Shown here one piece after another: positions 2,754-59,982 of a DNA stretch of 64,000 nt (positions within the stretch are counted from its first letter, which is position 1; every line of letters starts with the position of its first letter). The notes under the pieces were generated by a model. It had not been told where the DNA came from, ran no database searches, and saw only the letters and a program-made list of their open reading frames with translations. The stretch is taken from positions 9,441 to 73,440 of the forward strand of contig JAHIUT010000038.1 of the NCBI GenBank assembly GCA_018817085.1, given 5' to 3'. Source of the stretch: Patescibacteria group bacterium (GTDB taxonomy: Bacteria; Patescibacteriota; WWE3; CG2-30-40-12). The position numbers and the translations under genes were made by a program.

Positions 2754-3434
2754 ATGAAAAAGGTTTCTGTGGCGGTTTTTTTGTGTTGTTTGGTGGTTCT
2801 GTTGACACCATCTTTTGTCTTTGCGCAGGAAGGGACAATTCTTGCGAGGGTGGAGGTTCACTGGGGGTATGTTGTAGATGAATCCCCCATCTCGTCAGTT
2901 TTTTTGAGTTCCTCTCGCGACAAACTGTGGGTGTCCACAAAAAGCGTTGGCGGAGAGGAGGGGGCCTCCTCTTATGTGGACATTATTACGGGGGAGATCA
3001 CCCCTCTTAATTTCAATGCCGACCCTTCAAATGGGTTTGCGCTTGGGGAGATTGCCGTTGCGATTGAAGAAAAAACAGCCCCATTTTTTAAGTCCAGTTG
3101 GTTAGGAGTTTGCTCCAACTTGGATTTTGTGGCAGTGCTAAAAAGTGGAACTGTTGAAACCCGCCTTACCAACCTTTCCCCTCTTCCTCTTCTCTGGAGC
3201 GGGGATAAGGGGATAACATGGGAAGAGTTGTCTTCCGGCGGGACTAAAGAATTTTATAAGGACAAAAGTTCGTTGGAAATTCTGTATCCCAATCAAGAAA
3301 CTATTGGTTGGGACCCCTGCGCCACATTAGCGTGGAACAGGGCGAGTTTTGACTTTAGCGCCGTTGGGCTTTCGTCTTTCACGGCGCGTAATTTAACCTT
3401 TCTTGAGAGGTTGCGGTTGTTGTTTGTTCATTAG
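2754..3434 (+). CDS. Secreted hypothetical protein (N-terminal signal peptide)
   Basis: 226-aa ORF with N-terminus MKKVSVAVFLCCLVVLLTPSFVFAQE, typical of an Sec signal peptide. No recognisable catalytic motif. Confidence 0.5.
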   Translation: MKKVSVAVFLCCLVVLLTPSFVFAQEGTILARVEVHWGYVVDESPISSVFLSSSRDKLWVSTKSVGGEEGASSYVDIITGEITPLNFNADPSNGFALGEIAVAIEEKTAPFFKSSWLGVCSNLDFVAVLKSGTVETRLTNLSPLPLLWSGDKGITWEELSSGGTKEFYKDKSSLEILYPNQETIGWDPCATLAWNRASFDFSAVGLSSFTARNLTFLERLRLLFVH

Positions 3435-3475: not shown

Positions 3476-4417
3476 TCATTCCCAAGTGTACAATTTTGAT
3501 AGAGGTTTGGATTTTCCAAGTTTTGTTTGAGGAGTTTTTTCCAGTATATACAAATCGCTTGTGTTCCCTACCGTTTCCGCTCCTTTTATGTACTTATTAA
3601 AGTTTTGGGTTTTTTCTCTTATAAAAAGTCCGTATTGGTTTATTATTTGTTGAACTTTTAACGATTTTTCTCTTGATAAAGGGGATGTGCCGTAACAAAT
3701 GTAGTGTGAGGATAATCCGTTTTCTTTGGTGGCTTCCAAACTTCTTCGCAAAAAAAGGTCAAATCCGTTTTCGGTGTATGGCGAGTCGGTAAAAACGGTA
3801 TCCGACTTATGCAAAAACTCTTTTGGAATAGCCTTTTTTAAATCCCACAAAACATAATTTATTTTTAAGCGATGTTCTTTACACACCTTTTCAATAACAT
3901 TAAGTATGTTTGTATCGATTTCAAGAACGGAAATATCGCAAGCTCTAAATGTGTAAGCTACGGCTAGAGATGTTAAATCGTCGTCCCCAAGAAAAACTAT
4001 TTTCCTATCTTGTAAATCTTTCTGGCCATTAAGCTTTTTTACGCGATTTATAACGGTTTCTTCCGTGGCGTAAAACTGGTCGTATTCTCTTTTTGGGACG
4101 GGCATTAAACTTTTTATATGGCGAATAAAATCTTGGATACCTTGCAAGTTAAAAGGTGGTTCTTTTTCAGATTTTTCGGAAAGAAGCGTTCCTCCCATAT
4201 TGGTGAGCGTTAATCGCGGGGAGGCCGTATTGTAATTGACAAATTTGGGATTTAATAACAAAACTAACCTTTTCATTTGCCCATGCGAAAGGTTGGTTAT
4301 TCGGGTAAGTTCCGAAACGGTGGGAGTTTGGGTTTTAATTATTTCAATAATGTTTATTATATCCGTTACTCGTATTTTGGATTTTCTGGATATGTTGTCC
4401 AAATTGGGAGTATTCAT
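3476..4417 (-). CDS. BpsA/DUF43-like aminopropyltransferase (putative long-chain/branched polyamine synthase) with N-terminal HTH-like region
   Basis: 313-aa ORF with a GDDDLTSLA motif characteristic of DUF43/BpsA aminopropyltransferases and a Rossmann-like segment. It is convergent with speH, so the pair gives a polyamine pathway context. Confidence 0.5.
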   Translation of the reverse strand: MNTPNLDNISRKSKIRVTDIINIIEIIKTQTPTVSELTRITNLSHGQMKRLVLLLNPKFVNYNTASPRLTLTNMGGTLLSEKSEKEPPFNLQGIQDFIRHIKSLMPVPKREYDQFYATEETVINRVKKLNGQKDLQDRKIVFLGDDDLTSLAVAYTFRACDISVLEIDTNILNVIEKVCKEHRLKINYVLWDLKKAIPKEFLHKSDTVFTDSPYTENGFDLFLRRSLEATKENGLSSHYICYGTSPLSREKSLKVQQIINQYGLFIREKTQNFNKYIKGAETVGNTSDLYILEKTPQTKLGKSKPLSKLYTWE

Positions 4418-4830
4418 AATAAATTGTCCAAAGCGGCGTTAACAAGGGAATCTGCCATAGAATTTTGTTCTCGCGGGATATATTTAAATTGAACTTTTTC
4501 AAATTGGTTTTCTAGATTTTTTACTTTTATGGCAAGTTTTTGGAGTTCCGCGTTTTTTATTTTGTAAGCTCCGGTTAGTTGTTTTACCGCAAGTTCGCTA
4601 TCCATAAAACATATAAGTTCTTTGGGCTGGTATTTTAGAGCGGTTTCAATGCCAAAAATTAATGCGGAATACTCGGCGATGTTGTTGGTGGCAATACCTA
4701 TTTTTTTGCCGAGTTTTATCACAGTTTTTTCGTTGTCCATTAAGACAACGCCAATAGCCGCCTGTCCTGGGTTATTTCTTGACCCCCCGTCGGTGTATAA
4801 AAAAAGTTTTTCCATACACCCATTATACAA
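4414..4830 (-). CDS. rnhA: Ribonuclease HI (RNase H type 1)
   Basis: Motifs YTDGGSRNNPG, NNIAEYSALI, REQNSMADSLVNAAL, which are the RNase H catalytic DEDD residues. The true start may be the internal MEKLF (about 4815). Confidence 0.8.
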   Translation of the reverse strand: MYNGCMEKLFLYTDGGSRNNPGQAAIGVVLMDNEKTVIKLGKKIGIATNNIAEYSALIFGIETALKYQPKELICFMDSELAVKQLTGAYKIKNAELQKLAIKVKNLENQFEKVQFKYIPREQNSMADSLVNAALDNLL

Positions 4831-4884
4831 TATTTGAAAATGAGAAGGGTTTAACCCTTTAGGGTTAAACCCTATTGAAACCTA

Positions 4885-6141: not shown

Positions 6142-6177
6142 GTATATCTACTCCCCCTAAAATTTAGTGACTATTAA

Positions 6178-6262
6178 ACTGTGCAAAATGGAGTCGGTAA
6201 CTCCAAAAAACTATGTAAAATGGAGTTGACAACTCCAAAAAACTATGTAAAATGGAGTTATG
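6178..6262 (+). repeat. About 2.6 tandem copies of a 32-bp unit (tgtaaaatggagtYGRYaactccaaaaaacta), each carrying a GGAGT..ACTCC palindrome, directly abutting the start codon of the AAA ATPase gene
   Basis: Read directly from the sequence: gtgcaaaatggagtcggtaactccaaaaaactatgtaaaatggagttgacaactccaaaaaactatgtaaaatggagtt. The middle unit contains the perfect 15-bp palindrome GGAGTTGACAACTCC. Confidence 0.8.
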
Positions 6263-7396
6263 TATTCCAGATTAATAACGCCTCCAAAAGATAAAAGCTT
6301 CTTTTTGTTTGGTCCTCGCGGAACCGGAAAAACAACTTGGGTAAGAGCCACTTTTCCGAAAGCAGTATATTTAGATTTATTGGAAGCGGAGGTATTTAAC
6401 ATTTTATTAGCCAATCCGCAAAGGTTGGAGAACTATATACCAAAAAACTTTACCGATTATATTATTATTGATGAAGTACAGCGAATTCCCGAAATACTAA
6501 ACGAAGTACATCGTTTAATTGAAAAAGAACGTCTTAAATTTATCCTCACTGGTTCTAGCGCTAGAAAATTAAGAAAAGGCGGGCAGAATTTGTTAGCGGG
6601 CAGAGCGCTTACTTATTTTTTGCACCCATTAACAGCGGTGGAACTTGGTACTGATTTTAATCTTAAACAATCTTTAAATTATGGGCATCTCCCCTCTATA
6701 AATAAAGAGAAAGATCCCCAAAAATATTTGGAAAGTTATATTAAGACTTACCTTGAGGAGGAAGTTTTTCAAGAAGGACTAACAAGAAATCTTTCCGTTT
6801 TCGCCCGTTTCCTGGAAACAGCAAGTTTCTCTCAAGGGTCGATTTTAAATACATCGGAAGTAGCAAGGGAAGCGGCTATTAATAGGAAGGTGGTGGAAAA
6901 TTATTTTAAGATTCTTGAGGATTTGTTAATTGGATATCGCATCCCTGTTTTTAATAAAAGGGCGAAAAGGAGACTTCTTGCTCATTCTAAATTCTATTTT
7001 TTTGATGTGGGTGTTTATAAGGTATTGCGTCCGATGGGTCCTTTGGATATGCCTGAAATGGTAGAAGGTATGTCTTACGAGAGCTTGTTTTTTCAGGACA
7101 TCCTTGCTATTAACAGCAGTTTGAATTTAGGGTATAAGCTTTTTTATTACCGAACCGTAACAGGAATAGAAGTTGATTTTGTAATGTATGGAGAAAAGGG
7201 AATTCGCGCTTTTGAAATTAAAAGAACCAACAAAATTTCCTCTGATTTAACTAAGGGTCTAAAATATTTCTCTAAGGAATATCCTCAATCAAAAAGTTTT
7301 CTTATCTATGGAGGAAAAAGAAAAATGAGCGAAGGCAATATTGAAATATTGCCAATTGAATACGCTCTTAAAAACCTTCCCGAGTTGCTTATTTAA
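6260..7396 (+). CDS. AAA+ ATPase (AAA_14/DUF4143 family, uncharacterised)
   Basis: Walker A FLFGPRGTGKTT and Walker B IIIDEVQRIP. Domain architecture and length (378 aa) are typical of the DUF4143 ATPase family. Confidence 0.7.
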   Translation: MYSRLITPPKDKSFFLFGPRGTGKTTWVRATFPKAVYLDLLEAEVFNILLANPQRLENYIPKNFTDYIIIDEVQRIPEILNEVHRLIEKERLKFILTGSSARKLRKGGQNLLAGRALTYFLHPLTAVELGTDFNLKQSLNYGHLPSINKEKDPQKYLESYIKTYLEEEVFQEGLTRNLSVFARFLETASFSQGSILNTSEVAREAAINRKVVENYFKILEDLLIGYRIPVFNKRAKRRLLAHSKFYFFDVGVYKVLRPMGPLDMPEMVEGMSYESLFFQDILAINSSLNLGYKLFYYRTVTGIEVDFVMYGEKGIRAFEIKRTNKISSDLTKGLKYFSKEYPQSKSFLIYGGKRKMSEGNIEILPIEYALKNLPELLI

Positions 7397-8833: not shown

Positions 8834-9516
8834 AACACAAAGGTCATTATTTTTGAGAAATTTTAAGACATCTTCTTTAGTAATTATTCTCTATCACCAC
8901 CTTTCGTTGAACTGATTTTACTGCACTTTTTATGTTGTTTGGAAGAGAATAAAACAATATATCCAGCAAGGAACAGAGACGCAAACGCTAAAATTACGAT
9001 AGCAGGATTGGCATTAGTAAGCATAATAAATTATCTCTTTCTAAATAAAATATAAGTTAATATAACAAAGATTGCGCTTGCTATAACGGCCATAAAGTAT
9101 GTGTCTGAAAATGTAGATGTGTTCATCTGGCCTCCCTTGCGAATAGCAACGATAAATTAAGAAATAGATAAGAAAGTCCAAACCCGGAAATGAGAAAAAG
9201 CATTTTTTCCACGGCGAATGTTTTGGAAAAAAAGGGAGCTACGATGCCTCCTGTAAACCAAGCTACCGAGATATTATTAAAAAAATCCGAAAGGACATTA
9301 TATTCTCCTCTAGTTAGGATTCTCATTAAGATTATATTAAACACTTTTAGAATTTTCCGCAAGTTTTTAATTCATAAGGGTTTAACCCTGTTTAGATAAT
9401 TTGAGTCCGCAGATAAATTCATATGTAGGTCCTGCGACAAATCCCCAACTAAAACCCCACATCAATTCTTCAATAGGCGCGCCGAGGAAAAAGATGCCAG
9501 AAAGGTTTTCGAGGAG

Positions 9517-25282: not shown

Positions 25283-25360
25283 CAGAGGTTTTTCCTAATA
25301 AGGTAATACTTGAATGCAGGTATTGACAGTTGGTAACTTGTTACTTATAATAGGGGAGTT

Positions 25361-25597
25361 ATGAAAGAGTACATTACTACAGTAACTCAAAAAGGGCAGG
25401 TTACCATTCCTAAAATTTTAAGGGACGCTGTTGGAATTGAAACATATAAAAAAGTTTCTGTTAAGTCCAAAGGTAAATATATTTTTATTTACCCTAATAA
25501 AGATATATTGGATATTGCGGGAAAAATTAAAACGCAAAATAAAAAACCCGCGTTATTGGCAAGGGAATATTTAGAGAAAGGATATGAAAGAAATTAA
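25361..25597 (+). CDS. vapB: AbrB/SpoVT-domain antitoxin (VapB-like)
   Basis: TVTQKGQVTIPKILRDAVGIE is a swapped-hairpin AbrB motif. It lies immediately upstream of, and overlaps by 14 nt with, a PIN-domain gene. Confidence 0.6.
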   Translation: MKEYITTVTQKGQVTIPKILRDAVGIETYKKVSVKSKGKYIFIYPNKDILDIAGKIKTQNKKPALLAREYLEKGYERN

Positions 25598-29049: not shown

Positions 29050-29077
29050 TTGCCCTTCGATTCTGGCTCGCCTTCGC
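29050..29077 (+). repeat. 28-bp perfect direct repeat, copy A (TTGCCCTTCGATTCTGGCTCGCCTTCGC)
   Basis: Identical 28-mer at 32489..32516. A short CCTCCT is also shared just upstream of both copies. Confidence 0.9.
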
Positions 29078-32417: not shown

Positions 32418-32488
32418 TACTGATAGTATACCATTTTTTAATTTTCCCCTAATTCTGAACGGTCCTCCTACGCTCGTTAAAACTTCTT

Positions 32489-32516
32489 GCCCTTCGATTC
32501 TGGCTCGCCTTCGCTC
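32489..32516 (+). repeat. 28-bp perfect direct repeat, copy B (TTGCCCTTCGATTCTGGCTCGCCTTCGC)
   Basis: Identical to 29050..29077. It lies between the Dam-MTase-2 start and the 3' end of tRNA-Pro. Confidence 0.9.
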
Positions 32517-32574: not shown

Positions 32575-32648
32575 TGTCGGGGACCGCGGAGTTGAACCGC
32601 GAATTTCTGCGTCCCGAACGCAGCGCCATGCCATTAGACCAGTCCCCG
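32575..32648 (-). tRNA. tRNA-Pro (anticodon CGG)
   Basis: Reverse complement: CGGGGACTGGTCTAATGGCATGGCGCTGCGTTCGGGACGCAGAAATTCGCGGTTCAACTCCGCGGTCCCCGACA. It has a 7-bp acceptor stem, anticodon arm CTGCG-TTCGGGA-CGCAG (as in E. coli proK) and T-arm CGCGG-TTCAACT-CCGCG. The D-arm is atypical (3-bp stem with a G-T pair). No encoded CCA. Confidence 0.7.
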
Positions 32649-40302: not shown

Positions 40303-40345
40303 TAAGAGTGCAATTAGGGTTCAACCCTAATAGGGTTGAACCCTA
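40303..40345 (+). repeat. Palindromic element TTAGGGTTCAACCCTAATAGGGTTGAACCCTATTAAAA immediately upstream of mutL
   Basis: X-spacer-revcomp(X) architecture with X=AGGGTTCAACCCT. It is related to the element at 4847..4880. Confidence 0.8.
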
Positions 40346-42081
40346 TTAAAATGAAGATAAAAAGACTGGACTCAAAAGTGTATAGAAAAATTGCGGCGGG
40401 AGAGGTGGTGGAAAGACCCGCTTCGGTAGTTAAAGAATTTGTTGAAAATTCAATTGACGCTAAAGCGGAAAGAATTGTGGTTGAAGTGGACAAAGGAGGG
40501 ATTGAAAGAATAAAAGTTTCGGATAACGGATTTGGGATTGAGAAGGAAGATATGCCCCTTGTTTTTGAACATCACGCCACCAGCAAGATTGAGACGGAGG
40601 AGGATTTATTAAATATAGAAAGTATGGGGTTTAGAGGAGAAGCTTTGTCGAGCGTTTCTTCAGTTTCTAAAGTAAGCTTAATATCCAAAACTAAAAAAGC
40701 TCAAACGGGATATTTTTACGCAGTTTCTGGGGGAGATTTTTTGGATAGTGGTACTAAAGCTTTTCAAGATGGGACAAGTATTGAAGTAAGAGACCTATTT
40801 TTTAATGTTCCGGCGCGAAAGAAGTTTTTAAAAACTCCATATACCGAGTTTTTGCACATAACACGCGTTTTTGTGGATTTGTGTTTGGCAAACATTAACA
40901 AAGATTTTAAGCTTATCCATAATGGCAGAGAAGTTTATAATTTAAGCGCGGTTTCAGACCTTTCTTTGCGGATTAAACAGCTTTTTGGAAAAAATGTTTA
41001 CGAAAATCTCATCCCTGTTTTTTGCGACCATCCTCATATTAAAATTTCGGGGTTTGTGGGCAAACCGCAAATGTCCTACGATTCCAAATCTAAGCAGTTT
41101 ATTATTGTTAACAACCGGCCTGTAAAAGATAGAATAATAAGCTCCGCGGTTAGAGAGGGTTTTGGGAGTTTAATAATGCATAGTGCTTCTCCTTTATATT
41201 TTATTAAAATTACTGCTCCGCTTGATTTTGTGGACGCCAACATTCATCCCCGAAAAGAGGAGGTTAGGTTTATTAACCCTAACTTAATATATTCTTTGGT
41301 TAAAAACACGATTTCACAGTCATTGTCCAAAGAAGATTTGTCGTTTAGACCGGAAGGAATGTCTTCGTACAAGTCGTCCAATGTTGAAAATGTTTCGGGC
41401 AGACAAGGTTACTACATACATGAAAAGGTTAGGGATGTTTCTTTCGCAAACCCCCTTTCTGTTTCAGATACATTAGAATTTTATTCGCAACTAGGAACGC
41501 AAGACACTTTTGAAGTTTTGGTGTTTAATAATTTGTATATTGTGGCAAATATTAACGATAGCTTGGAAATTTACGACCAGCATGCTTTGCATGAGCGGGT
41601 GCTGTACGAGAAGTTTAAAAAAGCGCTTTTAGAAAAAACACCGTCCTCGCAAGTTTTGTTAACCTCGCAATCGTTTGAGTTTGCGGAGGATGATTTTCAG
41701 ATTATTAATCGCAATCTCAAACTTTTTATAAAACTTGGTTTTGAGATAGAAGTTTGGGGGACGCGCGCGATAGAAATTAAAGCTATCCCGTCGTTTTTGG
41801 GCGCTAACTTTTCTGCGGTAACGAATATGCTTTGCGAGTTTGCGGAAGATTTAAAGGAGAAAAACAAGTTTAAAGGGGTAAGCAGTATGGAGGAAAAGGC
41901 GCTTTCCATTATGGCTTGTCGTTCCGCTGTTAAAGCGGGAGATAAATTAACTCATACCGAAGCTTTGGGGCTTTTAAAGGAGAATATTAAATTAAAAGGA
42001 ATATACACCTGCCCGCACGGAAGACCTTTTAAGATAAAAATAACAAAAGAGGATTTGGAAAAGATGTTTAAAAGGGTTTGA
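40336..42081 (+). CDS. mutL: DNA mismatch repair protein MutL
   Basis: GHKL ATPase motifs (VVKEFVENSIDAKAERIVVEV; VSDNGFGI; GFRGEALSS) and a C-terminal dimerisation domain. Confidence 0.92.
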   Translation: MNPIKMKIKRLDSKVYRKIAAGEVVERPASVVKEFVENSIDAKAERIVVEVDKGGIERIKVSDNGFGIEKEDMPLVFEHHATSKIETEEDLLNIESMGFRGEALSSVSSVSKVSLISKTKKAQTGYFYAVSGGDFLDSGTKAFQDGTSIEVRDLFFNVPARKKFLKTPYTEFLHITRVFVDLCLANINKDFKLIHNGREVYNLSAVSDLSLRIKQLFGKNVYENLIPVFCDHPHIKISGFVGKPQMSYDSKSKQFIIVNNRPVKDRIISSAVREGFGSLIMHSASPLYFIKITAPLDFVDANIHPRKEEVRFINPNLIYSLVKNTISQSLSKEDLSFRPEGMSSYKSSNVENVSGRQGYYIHEKVRDVSFANPLSVSDTLEFYSQLGTQDTFEVLVFNNLYIVANINDSLEIYDQHALHERVLYEKFKKALLEKTPSSQVLLTSQSFEFAEDDFQIINRNLKLFIKLGFEIEVWGTRAIEIKAIPSFLGANFSAVTNMLCEFAEDLKEKNKFKGVSSMEEKALSIMACRSAVKAGDKLTHTEALGLLKENIKLKGIYTCPHGRPFKIKITKEDLEKMFKRV

Positions 42082-42106
42082 CACACGACCTGTAGTGTGG
42101 TATAAT
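42078..42106 (+). promoter_or_regulatory. Perfect consensus sigma70 promoter (TTGACA-N17-TATAAT) facing a noncoding double-hairpin motif
   Basis: TTGACA at 42078-42083, a 17-nt spacer and TATAAT at 42101-42106. It overlaps the mutL stop. There is no plus-strand ORF downstream. Confidence 0.6.
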
Positions 42107-42172
42107 TAACTTATGGAAAATTTCATAGGGGTGCGGGACCCCAAGAGAGGGTTCGACCCTTAAATCAGCCCT

Positions 42173-42403
42173 TTATACTTCTTTGAGTAATTCAAAATAC
42201 CTGTCCCGAGAAATTTTCGCCGTTCTCAAATTATTTAAGATAATAAAGACAGGTATGTCTTTTTTCTTGGGTATAACAATGCGCCTTATGAAGCCCGCTT
42301 TTTTAAGTTGGATGTGGTCTCCTGAAGTTCCAATATATTCCCAACCATCCATTCCAAATAATTTAACTAGAATTTTATAATTTTGGGGCGTTATTTTAGG
42401 CAT
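42173..42403 (-). CDS. hicA: HicA-family (YcfA-like) mRNA interferase toxin
   Basis: 76 aa: ...GWEYIGTSGDHIQLKKAGFIRRIVIPKKKDIPVFIILNNLRTAKIS matches the HicA GW...GSH...vtvP.H layout. Confidence 0.65.
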   Translation of the reverse strand: MPKITPQNYKILVKLFGMDGWEYIGTSGDHIQLKKAGFIRRIVIPKKKDIPVFIILNNLRTAKISRDRYFELLKEV

Positions 42404-42698
42404 AAGCGTATTTATTGGATGTTTTAATAGGTAAAGAAAACAAGGAGAAATAAATTTCGGGTTTTTGCGAATCTGACGAGAACCCCGCTTCTTCCAGTAC
42501 CTTATATAAGGTTTTATCTTCAGTAGCCCCTTCTAAAAGAATATGGATAGCCTGCTTTAACATTCTCTGCGCTTCTTCTTGAGTTTTGCCACAAGAAGAT
42601 ATATCAAATTCGGGATTATACGCAACAAAAGGATATTCCTTGGAGCTGGCCTCTTTGAAAACTTTGATTGTTAATGTGAGGTCTGATATGTTTTGCAT
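42396..42698 (-). CDS. hicB: HicB-family antitoxin (UPF0150, RNase H-like fold)
   Basis: YPFVAYNPEFDISSCGKTQEEAQRMLKQAIHILLE. 8-nt overlap with downstream hicA. Confidence 0.6.
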   Translation of the reverse strand: MQNISDLTLTIKVFKEASSKEYPFVAYNPEFDISSCGKTQEEAQRMLKQAIHILLEGATEDKTLYKVLEEAGFSSDSQKPEIYFSLFSLPIKTSNKYAYA

Positions 42699-42819
42699 TT
42701 TATAAAATTACCACAGTTTGCGCTTTTATACAAGGATATAAGAAAAAAGCAAATCCATTAGGGTATAAACCCTTCCGCCAGCTGGCGGAGGGTTTAACCC
42801 TTAATTACAATGTCCAAAA

Positions 42820-42852
42820 AGGGACTACCCCGATTCGGGGTAGTCCCTTTTT
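42820..42852 (-). terminator. Rho-independent terminator hairpin GGGACTACCCCGATTCGGGGTAGTCCC with flanking A/T tracts (bidirectional)
   Basis: Perfect 11-bp stem, AAAAA 5' and TTTTTT 3'. It is directly downstream of the Lon-like ATPase stop. The same stem sequence recurs at 57226. Confidence 0.75.
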
Positions 42853-42853
42853 T

Positions 42854-43918
42854 CTAAAGTATGGGTAAAAAGGATTTGAAGTTTGTTTCGTCCACCACAA
42901 CAACCCTTTCCCCTTGTTCTATAATGATTTTCGCTGATTTTCGGCAAACGCTTTCCAAAATCCTTTGCAAACTTCTAATACCCGAATCATATCCCAAAGG
43001 CCTTATTAGTTTTGGCCAAACCTCCTCTTTTATTTTGAGCTGTTCTGGCAAAATACCGCTTGTTCTCATAATTTTAGAAAGAAGATAATCCCTTGCGATA
43101 ATCTCTTTTTCTTTATCCGAATAAGACGGCATTCTTATTATTTCCAACCTATCCATTAAAGCCGCTGAAAAAGTTCCAATATTGTTCGCGCTTGAAATAA
43201 ACAAAACATTGGATAAATCTATTGGATAATCCACATAATGGTCAACAAAAGAGGTGTTTTGTTCCGGGTCTAAAATTTCTAAAAGAGCCGCCATCATATC
43301 GCTACGCAAACCCTGCTCTCCGCTTACCTTGTCCATTTCATCAAGAAGTATTAATGGGTTTCCTACTTTTGTTCTAACTAAAGCTTTTATAATTTGTCCC
43401 GGCTCGGCGGCGGGCAGAGATTTGCTTTTTCCTCTAAGTTCTAGTATAGAACCTAAAGCTCCCAGAGATATCCTAACAAATTTTCTGCCCAAAGCTTCGG
43501 CAATTGAACTTGCGAGTGTGGTTTTTCCAAGACCTTGCAAGCCCACTAAACATAAAACAGGCGCCTTTTCATAAGACGCAACTTTGTCTTTATTGATGAT
43601 TTTTAAATTCTCAACCGCTAAATACTCCAGAACTCGCTCCTTTACCTGTTCCAATCCATAATGGTTTTTATCCAACACCCCCTTGGCATTTTTCAAGTCC
43701 AAATTGTCCTTGGTTTTTCTGTCCCAAGGAATCTCGGTTATCCAGTTTATGTAATTTTCTATAACATCAAACTCGGAAGAATAAGTGTTTGTTTGGCTTA
43801 TGCGGTTTAACCTATCAAGCATTTGCAATACCCTTTCTTTAAGGTCCTTTGGCAAGGCGCAGGCATCCACTTTTTGGTTTAGACTTTTTAATTCCGCAAG
43901 CAGAGAATTTTTGGGCAT
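42854..43918 (-). CDS. Lon-like AAA+ ATPase lacking a protease domain
   Basis: Lon-type Walker A block VLCLVGLQGLGKTTLASSIAEALGRKFVRISLG (compare Lon LCLVGPPGVGKTSLGKSIA..GRKFVRISLGG). Walker B LILLDEMDKVS. An N-terminal ...HYGLEQVKERVLEYLAV matches the Lon pre-ATPase helix. At 354 aa it has no S16 protease domain. Confidence 0.6.
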   Translation of the reverse strand: MPKNSLLAELKSLNQKVDACALPKDLKERVLQMLDRLNRISQTNTYSSEFDVIENYINWITEIPWDRKTKDNLDLKNAKGVLDKNHYGLEQVKERVLEYLAVENLKIINKDKVASYEKAPVLCLVGLQGLGKTTLASSIAEALGRKFVRISLGALGSILELRGKSKSLPAAEPGQIIKALVRTKVGNPLILLDEMDKVSGEQGLRSDMMAALLEILDPEQNTSFVDHYVDYPIDLSNVLFISSANNIGTFSAALMDRLEIIRMPSYSDKEKEIIARDYLLSKIMRTSGILPEQLKIKEEVWPKLIRPLGYDSGIRSLQRILESVCRKSAKIIIEQGERVVVVDETNFKSFLPIL

Positions 43919-54607: not shown

Positions 54608-55580
54608 AATTAAATTGCCACATTGGAAATTTTTGACCGTCGTTTTGCTATTTTTAACGGCTTTTGCGGTTTTGTATTCTTTGGGGGTGAAAAGAGCCAA
54701 CCGCTACGACTTGGGAAAAGAATCTTTTAAAGAGGTTGTTATAAACAAAGGAGCTTCAGTGGAAGAGATTTCAAAAATATTGGTTAGAGAAGACTTAATA
54801 AACTCGCGCGCTTTATTTAAATTATATGTGTATATTAGTAATAAAAGTCTTCAGGCGGGGAATTTTTATGTTCCCACGAACATAAGTGTGGTGGAGTTGG
54901 CTAATCTTTTGGGTAAAGGGAGTTTTCAGAAAAAATACACTTTTTTAGAAGGTTGGCGCGTGGAGCAGATGGCAGAGCTTTTGCCTAAAGATGTCCAAAA
55001 CGAGTTTCTTAAAAGCTCTTACACTAAAGAAGGGTTTATGTTTCCCGACACCTACTTTTTTCTGGAAAGCGCAATTGGGGAGGAAATTGCCCAAACTTTA
55101 AGCCAGACTTTTGAAGATAAAATAAAAGTTTTTGACAAGGAAATCAAGGCAAGTTCCCTTTCTTTGGAGGAGATTGTTATTTTAGCATCTATAATTGAAA
55201 GAGAAGCTAAAAGTTTTGATGAGAAGGCGACAATTGCTGGGATTTTGGTAAAAAGGTACCAAAACGGATGGCCTTTGCAGGCGGACGCTACTATTCAGTA
55301 CGCCAAGGATTTAAACGCCTTTACTTGCGCATCTTTATCCGACTGTGTTTGGTGGCGTCCGCTATTTGCCACAGATTTGGATATAGAGTCCTCTTATAAT
55401 ACATACAAATATGCGGGGTTACCTCCAACACCGATATGCAGTCCCGGACTGGAATCTATAAGGGCGGTTTTGGAGTATAAAGAAACCCCATATTGGTTTT
55501 ATTTAACGGGAAACGATGGGGTAACGCGCTTTTCCGAGACGGTAGAAGAGCAAACGGCTAATATACAAAAGTATTTGTAG
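54588..55580 (+). CDS. mltG: Endolytic murein transglycosylase MltG (YceG family)
   Basis: N-terminal TM and YceG-like domain (KKYTFLEGWRVEQMAELL; FMFPDTYFF; ASIIEREA). The 3' end lies inside direct repeat R1. Confidence 0.8.
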   Translation: MKPMKIKIKLPHWKFLTVVLLFLTAFAVLYSLGVKRANRYDLGKESFKEVVINKGASVEEISKILVREDLINSRALFKLYVYISNKSLQAGNFYVPTNISVVELANLLGKGSFQKKYTFLEGWRVEQMAELLPKDVQNEFLKSSYTKEGFMFPDTYFFLESAIGEEIAQTLSQTFEDKIKVFDKEIKASSLSLEEIVILASIIEREAKSFDEKATIAGILVKRYQNGWPLQADATIQYAKDLNAFTCASLSDCVWWRPLFATDLDIESSYNTYKYAGLPPTPICSPGLESIRAVLEYKETPYWFYLTGNDGVTRFSETVEEQTANIQKYL

Positions 55581-55638
55581 AACGATAGAAGCGTTTGTTT
55601 TTAGGGGGTCGTATCCCTATGAAATTGGATTTGTCGAT

Positions 55639-56448
55639 TCATTCTAATGGACTTTTGACATTTTTAAGTTTGGGATTAGTTACTTGCGTATAAAGTTGAG
55701 TAGTTCTAATGTTTTGATGTCCTAATAATTCTTGCACATACCGCACATCGACGCCATTTTCCAAAAGGTGGGTAGCAAAGCTATGGCGCAGACTATGAAA
55801 AGTGGCATCTTTTTTAACGCCAGATTTTTTAAAGGAATTTTCAAAAACTTTTTGAGCGGTTCTTGTGGTCAGTTTTCCACCCCGCTCACTTGAAAACACA
55901 AAATCGTTTTTTTCTTTGCCGGCAATAAGGTTTTGAATATCTGCTGATAACTTCTCTGGAAAAACACTAATTCTGTCCTTTTTGCCTTTTGCCTGCTTAA
56001 TATGAATGGTCAATTCATGAAAATCAATGTCTTGCGCTTTTAGGCTTATTGCTTCACTAACGCGTAATCCAGCGCCATAAGCAAGCGATAGAAGTAATTT
56101 ATGCTTCGTGTTTTCGGTTGCTTCAAGGATTTTTTCTATTTCACTCCTTGAAAGCACTACGGGAAGGCTTTTATTTTTCTTAGCTGATCGAATTTCTATT
56201 TTCTCATTTGTGATGTTGCGATAGTAGAATTTAACCGCATTCAGAAGCAGGTTTCTTGTTTCTGCCGATACGCCTTTCTTTTCGCAAAACAGTAGAAAGT
56301 CTTTGATGTTATCTCTATCCAATATTTCAAGATTATCCTTTTTATAAACAAAATATTCCTTGAGTCCGTAAAGGTAACTTTTTATGGTTTTGCTACTGTA
56401 ATTGCGGATTTTTAATTCCCGTTCTGTTTGCCCTAATTGTTGTTGCAT
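55639..56448 (-). CDS. Tyrosine-type site-specific recombinase/integrase (XerC/D-like)
   Basis: C-terminal catalytic motifs HSLRHSFATHLLENGVDVRYVQELLGHQNIRTTQLYTQV (R..H..Y). N-terminal SAM-like core-binding domain. 269 aa. Confidence 0.8.
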   Translation of the reverse strand: MQQQLGQTERELKIRNYSSKTIKSYLYGLKEYFVYKKDNLEILDRDNIKDFLLFCEKKGVSAETRNLLLNAVKFYYRNITNEKIEIRSAKKNKSLPVVLSRSEIEKILEATENTKHKLLLSLAYGAGLRVSEAISLKAQDIDFHELTIHIKQAKGKKDRISVFPEKLSADIQNLIAGKEKNDFVFSSERGGKLTTRTAQKVFENSFKKSGVKKDATFHSLRHSFATHLLENGVDVRYVQELLGHQNIRTTQLYTQVTNPKLKNVKSPLE

Positions 56449-56469
56449 AATTGTTTTATTTTGGTAAAA

Positions 56470-56746
56470 TAAAAACAGATCTAACTTGACTAGAGATTAA
56501 CATGTGTTCGTATAATACGCAATTTAATGATGATATTATGAAAACACTTCGCCTAAAAACGAGTTAGCCAACATCGCTGCGCTTGTTGGCTAATGTGTTG
56601 CGGATTCGCTGTTGCCTCGTCGCTTCGCGACATCGGCTAACAGCGGGATATACGAAATTTTTTCCCGCTTCGCAGGAAAAACCTTCGTATCATCCGCAAC
56701 ACATTATGTGCCATCCATCTTTTATTATTTTTATGAGAGGAGGTGA
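56470..56746 (+). promoter_or_regulatory. Structured noncoding region inside the mini-element, with nested inverted repeats
   Basis: TAATGTGTTGCGGAT...ATCCGCAACACATTA is a 15-bp inverted repeat about 90 nt apart. Inside it are TTAGCCAACA..TGTTGGCTAA and CGCTGTT..AACAGCG. Confidence 0.5.
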
Positions 56747-57016
56747 GTGAATGTGAAAAAAACAAAGAAACCTTGGTTGGCCGCAATATTAAACCTTATT
56801 CTTTCCGGTGTAGGATATATTTATAACGGCAAGAGAGTAGTTTTTGGTGTGCTTATCCTAATTTCATCAGTTATCTCTTACATTGTTGAGGGTTCTGACC
56901 TTGATATCTTAAGTTCTGAAGTAAAAGTTATCGCAGTTACCGCATATCTTGTTATGGCTATAGCTTTTTCTTACGATGCATATCGGGAAGCAAAAGAGAT
57001 AAACGAGGGGGAATAG
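56747..57016 (+). CDS. Small two-TM membrane protein (89 aa), cargo of the mini-element
   Basis: PWLAAILNLILSGVGYIY... and ...AVTAYLVMAIAFSYD. GTG start per the ORF track. The preceding GAGAGGAGGTGAGTGAATGTG suggests an RBS plus a start codon nearby. Confidence 0.4.
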   Translation: MNVKKTKKPWLAAILNLILSGVGYIYNGKRVVFGVLILISSVISYIVEGSDLDILSSEVKVIAVTAYLVMAIAFSYDAYREAKEINEGE

Positions 57017-57221
57017 AATAAAAGATGGACAGCGCATAACACGGGCTATACGGAAAATTTAAAACAATTTTCCCAAATCCTGCTAAAATCGGAGCAGGAC
57101 TTCGTATAGCCCGAAACGTTGTTCGAAATAATGTGGTAACGCATTTTTCCGAGACGATAGAGGAGCAAACGGCTAATATACAAAAGTATTTGTGAGAAAA
57201 AAGAGTTGCCAAAAAGGGACT

Positions 57222-57261
57222 ACCCCGTCCGCCAGCTGGCGGACGGGGTAGTCCCTTTTTT
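57222..57261 (+). terminator. Rho-independent terminator: GGGACTACCCCGTCCGCCAGCTGGCGGACGGGGTAGTCCC + TTTTTT
   Basis: Perfect long stem immediately after the orphan mltG 3' copy (R2). It shares the GGGACTACCCCG stem module with the 42820 terminator and the CCGCCAGCTGGCGG core with 42767..42790. Confidence 0.75.
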
Positions 57262-58932: not shown

Positions 58933-59069
58933 AAGGGAGATAAGAAGTAAAGACCATGCAGGAAATATCAGTTTAATTGGAATTTCATTGGGGTGCGGAC
59001 CCCTTCGGGGTACCGACCCCTAAAACAATTACCCTTTGAAAAAGATAAAGACTTTGTTAAGATGGTATT

Positions 59070-59822
59070 ATGATATCCCTGTCCAAAATATCCACAAACG
59101 GTAAATTTATGTTTTTAGCTTACGACCACGGCTTGGAACACGGTCCCTCCGATTTTAATGATGTAAATGTAGACCCTAACTATATTCTGGACATTGCCGT
59201 CAAAGGCGGTTTTAGCGCTGTTATCCTTCAAAAAGGCATTGCCGAAAAATATTATGCCCCCTCAAAGAATAATGTTCATTTAATTATTAAACTCAACGGT
59301 AAAACCAATCTTGTTGAAGAGGAACCTTATTCCGCTCCGTTGTGTACGGTGGATGAAGCTATAAAACTAAAAGCTTCCGCGGTTGGCTATACCTTATATG
59401 TTGGTAGTAAGTTTGAGAGTATGATGTTTAAAGAGTTTGGCAGAGTGGTGGAGGAGGCCCATTCAAAAAACATTCCTGTTATAGCGTGGATGTATCCGCG
59501 GGGGAAAGCGGTAAAAGGTAGAGAAGATTCAAGAGAAATTTTGGCTTATTCGGCAAGAGTTGGTCTTGAACTGGGAGCGGATATCTTAAAACTTCATTAT
59601 GCGGGCAATGTCCTTGACATGGAATGGGTGGTAGAAAGCGCTGGAAAAGCAAAAGTTGTTATTTCTGGAGGAATGAAAGAATCGGAAAAAGAATTTTTAA
59701 AGGACTTAAAAGACGCTATGAAAGCAGGATGTTCCGGAGTAGCGGTGGGGAGGAATGTTTGGCAGAGAAAAACCCCCCTGCCTTTTGTTAATGAGATTTA
59801 TGGAGTAGTAATGTGTGGATAG
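59070..59822 (+). CDS. Class I (Schiff-base) aldolase of the DhnA/FbaB family (archaeal-type fructose-bisphosphate aldolase-like)
   Basis: 250-aa TIM-barrel with ADILKLHYAG (Schiff-base Lys region) and a phosphate-binding GRNVWQ tail. Confidence 0.6.
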   Translation: MISLSKISTNGKFMFLAYDHGLEHGPSDFNDVNVDPNYILDIAVKGGFSAVILQKGIAEKYYAPSKNNVHLIIKLNGKTNLVEEEPYSAPLCTVDEAIKLKASAVGYTLYVGSKFESMMFKEFGRVVEEAHSKNIPVIAWMYPRGKAVKGREDSREILAYSARVGLELGADILKLHYAGNVLDMEWVVESAGKAKVVISGGMKESEKEFLKDLKDAMKAGCSGVAVGRNVWQRKTPLPFVNEIYGVVMCG

Positions 59823-59982
59823 TATATTGGTTTTAGATAACATCTCAAATGTCAAATTTCAAAACTCAAAGCCACAACTTAAATATCAAATCTAATTTTA
59901 ATGCAACTGTGTGAGCTATGGCGAGATTTAAGTTTTGACATTTGGATTTGATATTTGAGTTTTGCGTTTTGAGATTTGGCTT

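Follow-up and report, generated by a model that had tools for sequence, protein, structure and literature searches.

The DNA analysed here is a 64,000-nucleotide stretch of a metagenome-assembled genome from the Patescibacteria group (hereafter the window). In it mutS and mutL are followed, on the opposite strand, by the toxin-antitoxin pair hicAB, and the spacer between mutL and hicA holds a strong promoter and a double-hairpin motif (Table 1). The initial annotation considered that this motif might be a small RNA, possibly an antisense regulator of hicAB, or a protein-binding motif. Our analysis favors, with a probability of roughly 0.7, its identification as a copy of a short mobile repeat resembling repetitive extragenic palindromes (REPs) and the hairpin-forming REP doublets called REPINs. 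The repeat would belong to a family distributed across the candidate phyla radiation (CPR) and tied to a divergent transposase resembling REP-associated tyrosine transposases (RAYTs), with the copy near mutL being a hybrid at the border of the hicAB cassette.

Table 1. Positions of the promoter, repeat elements and cassette in the window. Handles beginning with L denote contigs used for comparison; L005 is the sister strain.
Feature	Position	Strand	Remark
Doublet AGGGTTTAACCCT-TT-AGGGTTAAACCCT, 12-bp palindrome	4845..4874		~25 nt upstream of a TTGACA promoter
Solo hairpin AGGGTTTAACCCT, preceded by TTCATA	9377..9389
Doublet AGGGTTCAACCCT-AAT-AGGGTTGAACCCT, filling the mutS-mutL spacer	40313..40345		Fold z = -9.0
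Extended -10 promoter TTGACA-17-TGgTATAAT	42078..42106	+	Identical 29-mer at L005:6433-6461
16-codon open reading frame MENFIGVRDPKRGFDP*	42113..42163	+	ATG spaced 6 nt from the -10 hexamer; its A is the predicted transcription start
Repeat copy 1, GGAAAATTTCAT-A-GGGGTGCGGGACCCC-AAGAGA-AGGGTTCGACCCT-TAAATCA	42115..42167	+	Compare L005:6540-6556
hicAB cassette (hicA 42173-42403, hicB 42396-42698)	42173..42733	-	Absent in 4/4 relatives examined
Three modules AGGGTATAAACCCT + TCCGCCAGCTGGCGGA + AGGGTTTAACCCT, then TAATTACA	42760..42801		Far side of hicAB
Repeat copy 3, single hairpin, CCAATTTCAT-A-GGGATACGACCCCC-TAAAAACA	55596..55628	-	3-mismatch match
Repeat copy 2, GGAATTTCAT-T-GGGGTGCGGACCCC-TTC-GGGGTACCGACCCC-TAAAACA	58979..59027	+

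Three copies of one repeat

The sequence TTTCATnGGGGTGCGG occurs exactly twice in the window, at 42121 and 58983, and the two copies can be aligned over ~50 nt (42115-42167 with 58979-59027). The recurrence reported in the initial annotation is therefore real, and the motif is non-coding and hairpin-forming. Two consecutive hairpins had been described in both copies. This holds for copy 1 (42128-42142 and 42148-42160), but copy 2, despite its two potential hairpins (58990-59003 and 59007-59020), folds best as a single 13-bp structure in which one arm pairs with the other, with one mismatch and a UUC loop. Copy 3, which has one hairpin, lies between the stop codons of yceG and an integrase gene. 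The three copies form a subfamily with the flanks AATTTCAT-n and TAAAaCA, and each stands at a border of strain-variable DNA. Copy 1 looks like a hybrid, judging by its sequence, as its left hairpin is of the copy-2 type and its right hairpin is the one resident in the sister strain.

Copy 2 is placed 8 nt upstream of the -35 element of a leaderless promoter (59036-59063) that serves an aldolase gene of the DeoC family starting at 59070. Two relatives share the gene order ruvX-yceG-aldolase-pfkB (L073, 82%, and L075, 80%). The first carries an element at the position of copy 2, CAATT-GGGGTCCGTCCCC-AAA-GGGGACGGACCTC-TAAAACA, again upstream of the leaderless aldolase promoter. Its 13-bp hairpin retains the copy-2 flanks, while its inner arms have changed with full compensation (single-stranded DNA fold z = -6.1). 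The covariation by which the initial annotation proposed to judge the motif is thus present, and this sequence comparison supports a maintained hairpin, whether RNA or DNA. No element was found upstream of the aldolase gene in the second relative.

Compared with both relatives, the window has ~3.4 kb of extra DNA between yceG and the aldolase gene. Copies 3 and 2 bracket this whole stretch in inverted orientation with their TTTCAT sides inward. They may derive from a single old doublet that insertions have split, or may be the inverted repeats at the ends of the DNA that was inserted. Part of the stretch is an integrated element (55510-57193) with a phage-type tyrosine recombinase gene (55639-56448, minus strand; Pfam E = 1.5e-45) that adjoins the 3′ end of yceG. 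A 69-nt stretch from this end recurs in direct orientation (55510-55578 and 57125-57193, with 90% identity), resembling an attL/attR pair. The aldolase-pfkB spacer (59846-59978) holds an AT-rich inverted repeat with 48-nt arms; related TTTGA-rich repeats occur in L075 and almost none in L073.

A family of paired mini-hairpins

Hairpins of the form GGGT-N1-9-ACCC are overrepresented in the window (16, versus 4.7 ± 2.2 in shuffled sequences), and those between genes are mostly paired. Seven family loci are present, all intergenic: besides the subfamily of copies 1-3, four elements are of the AGGGTTnAACCCT type. One of these, at 42760-42801, has a three-module layout also found at L041:12289. The doublet at 4845-4874 adjoins a gene with an RNase H (RVT_3) domain (4414-4830, minus strand). 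The elements occupy divergent, convergent and co-directional gene contexts, a distribution not expected of a terminator or a small-RNA gene.

Our search for the exact motif (pattern TTTCATNGGGGTGCGGN{0,1}ACCCC) yielded a single chance match among 185,579 species genomes, in an Acidobacteriota contig of 68% GC (L004), and none in JGI metagenomes. The recurrence across genomes that the initial annotation proposed to look for was not seen for this form. A family pattern consisting of two arms, AGGGTTNAACCCT-N1-4-AGGGTTNAACCCT, which matches two of the window elements, recovered 54 metagenome loci of 34-50% GC (except L059, at 67%), several of them from groundwater. Among 51 unique matches, 48 have complementary bases at the free central position of the two arms (p = 1e-25), indicating that the two apparent hairpins are in fact the arms of one palindrome. 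Other subfamilies at these loci include GGGGTCTGACCCC / GGGGTCAGACCCC, hairpin pairs that enclose TCCGCCAGCTGGCGGA as at 42760-42801, and GGGGTGCGACCCC in direct or inverted doublets. The last of these differs by one base from hairpin 1 of copy 1 and is its closest relative. Moreover, the flank TTTCAT-n-RGGGT recurs in unrelated contigs (L024 group, L049).

Such palindromes could instead be operators for a dimeric DNA-binding regulator whose regulon is marked by AGGGT-N-ACCCT sites. Indeed, they are often paired and often lie 8-25 nt upstream of a -35 hexamer. We consider this explanation very improbable, since the distance between half-sites is not constant (loop lengths of 3-6 nt and more), neighboring genes share no function and some copies reside within open reading frames (ORFs). 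In addition, the central bases of paired arms are either identical or complementary, which argues for copying rather than independent selection. The suggestion of a protein-binding motif in the initial annotation nevertheless comes close, if the repeat is a REP-type substrate of the transposase described below.

About a third of the pattern matches (19 of 61, by crude ORF calls) are located inside ORFs. Eight of these host ORFs are real by Pfam and include TGT, radical SAM, PriA, class II aminoacyl-tRNA synthetase, PheT, Wzy and PfkB proteins. The in-frame elements are read as about 10-14 amino acids, for example RVEPFKGSTL, RVKPSRGFNP or KGLNPQEGSTL. The PriA insert corresponds to a 14-residue gap in PDB homologues, in the zinc-ribbon region, and the TGT insert likewise falls at gaps. 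In-frame loops of ~10 amino acids are seen in PriA, TGT, aminoacyl-tRNA synthetases and even the transposase itself. Co-directional genes with tiny spacers around an element were also considered as genes split by insertion, and proved to be distinct complete genes.

A phage origin was examined as well and rejected. No AGGGTT doublets were found in 2.9 million viral contigs, and a looser GC-rich pattern gave 19 viral matches, mostly in phage contigs of 54-70% GC, that we take to be mostly chance. One viral contig of 46% GC (L082, IMGVR_UViG_3300027891_000005, ~3054-3100) contains tandem GGGGTGCGACCCCTGCGA, the hairpin unit that flanks the transposase gene of L030.

Association with a Y1 transposase gene

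At L049:621-1364, a gene for a Pfam Y1_Tnp protein has identical doublets on both sides. Homologues of this protein were found by tblastn only in L014, L030, L040, L042, L045, L049 and L062, and all seven genes adjoin repeats, on both sides in L014, L030, L040, L049 and L062 and on one side in L042 and L045. In L030 the flanking GGGGTGCGACCCC doublets have the same orientation on both sides. REP/RAYT systems are defined by the REPtron arrangement, in which a transposase gene stands between copies of its own repeat, and inverted doublets forming hairpins are REPINs (PMC6006769, PMC5581495).

All six genes that were scanned pass the Pfam Y1_Tnp cut-off. Their only NCBIfam match is NF047646, the REP-associated tyrosine transposase, at 40-60 bits compared with an equivalog cut-off of 80, making them distant relatives of that family. 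The proteins are 200-230 amino acids long and share invariant CLMPNHFH (the HUH motif) and RYIHxNP sequences, the latter aligning with the YIYINP stretch of 4ER8; its tyrosine is presumably the catalytic one. The best PDB match is Escherichia coli TnpA-REP (4ER8), with a weak E = 0.002, and ISDra2 TnpA follows just behind (E = 0.003). The L049 protein, from Candidatus Peregrinibacteria, is deposited as a hypothetical protein. Its gene also contains an in-frame copy of the palindrome (L049:1143-1175, read as RVKPCETGFNP) and a second GFNP-containing insert, both of which are gaps in five homologues.

The promoter at the end of mutL

As the initial annotation stated, a perfect sigma70-type consensus overlaps the end of mutL and points into the 3′ end of hicA, whose identity is confirmed by Pfam (HicA_toxin). 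The promoter comprises TTGACA (42078-42083), which contains the mutL stop codon TGA (42079-42081), a 17-nt spacer with the inverted repeat CACAC-N8-GTGTG, TG (42098-42099) and TATAAT (42101-42106). The window has two perfect 12/12 promoters, one of them with the extended -10 TG, whereas 1000 dinucleotide-preserving shuffles gave means of 0.044 and 0.001, respectively. With 0.001 expected and one seen, the site at the mutL end is not a chance match. The other perfect promoter (TTGACA-17-TATAAT, 25323-25351) has a palindromic spacer, GTAAC-TT-GTTAC, and lies 9 nt ahead of the ATG of a MazE/AbrB-type antitoxin gene (25361-25582), an autoregulated-looking arrangement.

We compared the locus with contigs encoding MutL homologues of 98% (the sister strain, L005) and of 71%, 63% and 63% protein identity (L006, L009 and L010). 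In all four, a convergent Lon-like AAA gene directly follows mutL, revealing hicAB as an insertion specific to the window strain, where the spacer is identical in three contigs. The sister strain, whose mutL is 97.5% identical in nucleotides, carries the same promoter over all 29 nt, and homology ends directly after TATAAT. Four other hairpins follow there, the last being AAGGGTTCGACCCTTAATTACAG and matching both hairpin 2 of copy 1 (42146-42167) and a hairpin at 42787-42809. The cassette is therefore bracketed by direct repeats of this hairpin. The promoter and downstream sequence of the window occur in neither L006, L009 nor L010, the last having one hairpin, AAGGGCTCAACCCTT, at the corresponding place.

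Because the sister strain has an identical promoter and no hicAB, the promoter is older than the cassette, to which it is not dedicated; it was possibly orphaned by the loss of its own cassette. Its conservation was rejected as a sign of selection, since an identical stretch of 29 nt is uninformative when mutL itself is 97.5% identical. If active, the promoter would produce transcripts antisense to hicA in the window and to the AAA gene in the sister strain.

The two near-identical strains carry different hairpin modules in both the mutS-mutL and the mutL-AAA spacers, which shows that spacer hairpins turn over at short evolutionary distances. In L009 and L010 there is a 4-nt overlap between mutS and mutL, so the doublet-bearing spacer that separates them in the window looks inserted. 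The corresponding spacer of the sister strain (L005:4600-4700) has a different palindrome of ~85 nt, CGTCATTGCGAG...CTCGCAATGACG, and that of L006 is AT-rich and palindromic; these represent two more kinds of spacer palindrome in the lineage.

The palindrome TCCGCCAGCTGGCGGA is a separate module nested in other hairpins at 42774-42789, 57228-57243 and, in an unrelated metagenome contig, L041:12304-12319. It replaces the ATT loop of a terminator palindrome (42816-42852 versus 57211-57260) and also stands between two GGGT hairpins; the sister strain has TCCGCCTTTGGCGGA. A bidirectional terminator, AAAAAGGGACTACCCCGATTCGGGGTAGTCCCTTTTT (42806-42870), looks inserted: on either side of it stands a diverged copy of the 3′ end of the AAA gene (ACAATGTCCAAAAAGG and AAAGTATGGGTAAAAAGG), of which the sister strain has only one (ACAGTATCGGTAAAAAGG).

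The case for and against a small RNA

The idea of the initial annotation can be elaborated as follows: this promoter would drive a structured small RNA of 60-100 nt or a longer antisense transcript, and hicA (and hicB) would be repressed through base-pairing or through collision with convergent transcription. The perfect promoter with its extended -10, its direction into the 3′ end of hicA, the sigma70-like character of the organism's own promoters and the stability that 5′ hairpins could confer on a transcript all favor this idea. However, no comparative test supports a dedicated regulator of hicAB. The sister strain has the promoter but lacks hicAB and differs in downstream sequence, so conservation at the same locus is missing there as well as in L006, L009 and L010. 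Copy 1 alone has a promoter at the matching place, with none for copies 2 and 3, and relatives of hicAB (L066-L072) have no such promoter downstream of hicA. The hicAB genes have their own leaderless promoter, TTGTAT (42733-42728)-17-TAATTT (42710-42705)-6-ATG.

Neither do the properties of the predicted transcript match those of a small-RNA gene. There is no terminator to delimit it: we found no terminator-like sites in 41500-43000, and the hairpin tails, AAGAGA and TAAATCAG, lack a U-tract. Its fold is no better than that of shuffled sequences (z = -1.0 to -1.5), and nothing relevant was returned by Rfam 15 for both copies and the sister-strain sequence, at gathering thresholds or at E<=10. 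We judge a small RNA or antisense regulator of hicAB at this site to be improbable.

A further reading of the promoter is that it expresses a leaderless peptide of 16 amino acids, MENFIGVRDPKRGFDP. The assertion that no plus-strand ORF follows the promoter is not strictly true, as this short ORF exists, and exactly 6 nt separate its ATG from the -10 hexamer, the spacing also seen in leaderless hicB, the aldolase gene and their relatives; with this spacing, the predicted transcript would begin with AUG. Leaderless genes with a -10 hexamer, exactly 6 nt and ATG seem common in the lineage, including the aldolase gene (59058-59072), hicB (42696-42710) and orthologues in L066, L073 and L075. The sister strain, however, lacks an ATG at this spacing, and its downstream 16-codon ORF is unrelated. 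Also, a 1-nt loop difference shifts the frame in copy 2, and the peptide reads as the repeat in one frame, like the in-frame inserts found elsewhere. The ORF is probably incidental, and we find it scarcely credible that the promoter serves to express the peptide.

The family at large shows a different relationship to promoters. A promoter of >=10/12 within 45 nt upstream accompanies only 2 of 127 doublet strand-instances (1.4 expected), whereas one that starts within 45 nt downstream and reads away accompanies 11 of 127 (again 1.4 expected). Repeat elements thus tend to stand just upstream of promoters, as does copy 2, and are not usually driven by one. Copy 1, lying behind a promoter, is an exception to this layout because hicAB was inserted there.

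The same enrichment can be read in favor of hairpins that are host RNA elements kept by selection, such as U-tract-less terminators, read-through insulators or 3′-end stabilizers. Consistent with such roles, copy 1 lies between convergent genes, L010 retains AAGGGCTCAACCCTT at the same place, and in L073 the transcribed strand of the hairpin includes a G.U pair. Earlier studies also report that REPs stabilize mRNA and take part in termination (PMC3733652, PMC3479197). Against this, the stems are not followed by a U-tract, which excludes them as intrinsic terminators, though canonical A-stem-T terminators exist in the window (42816-42852 and 57211-57260). Furthermore, copies occur in divergent spacers and in frame within ORFs, and they flank Y1 transposase genes. 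We regard selection for a host RNA function as an unlikely primary explanation; such a role can coexist with a REP/REPIN-like origin as a secondary effect.

A probable mobile repeat at a cassette border

The REP/REPIN-like interpretation accounts for these observations as follows. The repeat unit would be a GC-clamped mini-hairpin, (A/G)GGGT-loop-ACCC(T/C), usually present as a doublet whose arms pair over ~13 bp. By analogy with REP/RAYT systems, a RAYT-like HUH/Y1 transposase would cut and rejoin the hairpin as single-stranded DNA, and copies would come to occupy spacers and also, in this lineage, in-frame sites within genes. At mutL, an insertion or replacement of DNA just downstream of the -10 element of an older promoter would have brought the hicAB cassette and copy 1. 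Any RNA from this promoter would start at the AUG at 42113, cross two hairpins and run antisense into hicA, most plausibly as a by-product of this juxtaposition rather than as a conserved gene. A tentative sign of the arrival of copy 1 together with the cassette comes from one relative of hicB (84%, L066), in which CCCGCACCC...ATTTTCC downstream of hicA is maybe homologous; the MAFFT alignment of the two is unconvincing.

Several observations weigh against this interpretation. The exact TTTCAT...GGGGTGCGG subfamily is seen in this species only, with three copies in 64 kb, so its link to the transposase is one of family resemblance. That link rests on contigs of other organisms, and transposition would follow by analogy; no Y1/RAYT gene is present in the window or in ~85 kb of the closest relatives. 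The 54 loci are an ascertained sample, as we chose the pattern that retrieved them. Copy 1, whose two hairpins differ, does not form a long REPIN-type hairpin, and the canonical GT[AG]G foot of REPs is absent, with varying flanks (nTAG, ATTG and others) in its place. Unlike extragenic REPs, the family also extends into ORFs, with the caveat on ORF calls given above. Finally, the promoter at the mutL end, which is far beyond chance, is given no role.

A more far-reaching proposal, which we put forward as speculation, is that CPR bacteria hold REPIN-like elements of a class not yet described, ultra-short at ~30 nt and accompanied by a divergent RAYT clade of their own, and that these elements colonize spacers and, in frame, housekeeping ORFs and mark the borders of swappable DNA. 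In such a scheme, a fixed promoter would face a hairpin-bounded slot, filled by hicAB here and by other hairpins in the sister strain, and would express a leaderless, hairpin-rich RNA antisense to any cassette occupying the slot.

At this locus, our analysis removes a tempting lead toward a new small RNA regulating hicAB and explains the recurrence of the motif. If the interpretation is correct, even tiny, reduced CPR genomes maintain a hairpin-mobilizing Y1 enzyme, ~30 nt are sufficient for such a mobile element, and the elements remodel proteins in frame, as in Rickettsia, and separate once-overlapping genes such as mutS and mutL. There is a direct gain for annotation, because the transposase genes are now deposited as encoding hypothetical proteins. 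The repeats could additionally serve as strain markers and as landmarks of insertion hot spots in metagenome-assembled genomes.

Two further sets of repeats occur in the window. A perfect 28-nt direct repeat, TTGCCCTTCGATTCTGGCTCGCCTTCGC (29050-29077 and 32487-32514), brackets three minus-strand genes and ends ~60 nt from tRNA-Pro (32576-32648), maybe delimiting an integrated or duplicated block. Within 6176-6271 there are three 32-nt units in tandem, each with a TGGAGT...ACTCCA hairpin; they overlap an 11/12 promoter (6226-6253) before a gene at 6260, and look like an operator array.

Comparison with known systems

Several known kinds of element were considered and set aside. A T-arm-like sequence, GGGTTCGACCC, belongs to no tRNA; ARAGORN finds only tRNA-Leu and tRNA-Pro elsewhere. 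Integron attC sites are imperfect palindromes of 57-141 bp with R″/L″...L′/R′ cores beside an IntI integrase gene. The elements here are ~30 nt, their GTTnAAC resemblances follow trivially from the palindrome, and the only recombinase gene in the window is the generic phage-type integrase (55639-56448), 13 kb away. DNA uptake sequences were rejected because copies are insertions that add protein residues, at about one per 9 kb here, almost all intergenic. Intrinsic terminators also are GC-rich stem-loops between convergent genes, but they have a U-tract, whereas these elements lack one and occur upstream of and inside genes as well.

The locus resembles the cis-antisense small RNAs of toxin-antitoxin systems in its structured 5′ region and in having a strong promoter that faces the toxin gene. 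It differs in that hicAB is a type II system, with a protein antitoxin and its own promoter, and in that the promoter at the mutL end predates the cassette and its predicted transcript has neither conservation nor a terminator.

Rickettsia palindromic elements, which measure about 100-150 bp, similarly enter conserved protein genes without shifting the frame and appear in the product as additional loops, a likeness in behavior that applies to the metagenome members and not to the window copies. The present elements measure ~30 nt and are associated with a Y1 transposase gene; Rickettsia elements are not known to have a dedicated one.

IS200/IS605 elements likewise have a Y1 transposase and, together with their transposase-less derivatives, subterminal hairpins recognized as single-stranded DNA, and the same-orientation doublets on both sides of the L030 gene recall them. 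However, there is no sign here that the transposase gene moves with its flanks, and the proteins are longer and closer, by a small margin, to TnpA-REP 4ER8 than to ISDra2 TnpA. No tnpB was noticed among the scanned neighbors, which are unrelated genes, in the course of a survey that included no tnpB search. In surveyed genomes, IS200-type genes are multi-copy and RAYT genes single-copy (PMC5581495, PMC6006769).

The closest parallel is with REP/RAYT (TnpA-REP) systems, known in E. coli, Pseudomonas and Stenotrophomonas (PMC3116915, PMC5581495, PMC6006769). The RAYT surveys consulted make no mention of CPR, whose members are the hosts here, and our full-text literature searches found no paper on palindromic elements in CPR/Patescibacteria and none that cites these sequences as such. 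REP/RAYT systems have been described mainly in Proteobacteria and a few other phyla, and REPINs are roughly 70-100 nt in size. The elements here are much shorter, at 28-31 nt per doublet, compared with 20-40 nt given for each single REP in one study (PMC3733652). The family is thus distinct from classical REPs in being very short, in lacking the GTAG foot, in its CPR hosts and in its in-frame colonization of ORFs, and atypical REP classes without the GT[AG]G foot have been described (PMC6006769). It nonetheless agrees with REPs, bacterial interspersed mosaic elements and REPINs in consisting of short, GC-rich, imperfect palindromes in spacers, as at 42128-42142, 42148-42160 and 58990-59020. 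Inverted doublets create a larger hairpin in copy 2, at 4845-4874, at 40313-40345 and in 48 of the 51 unique metagenome doublets, though not in copy 1; several subfamilies occur, and presence varies among strains. As in a REPtron, moreover, the repeat stands on either side of the transposase gene in five contigs of other CPR bacteria, and this gene encodes a Y1/HUH protein with HUH and YI..NP motifs.

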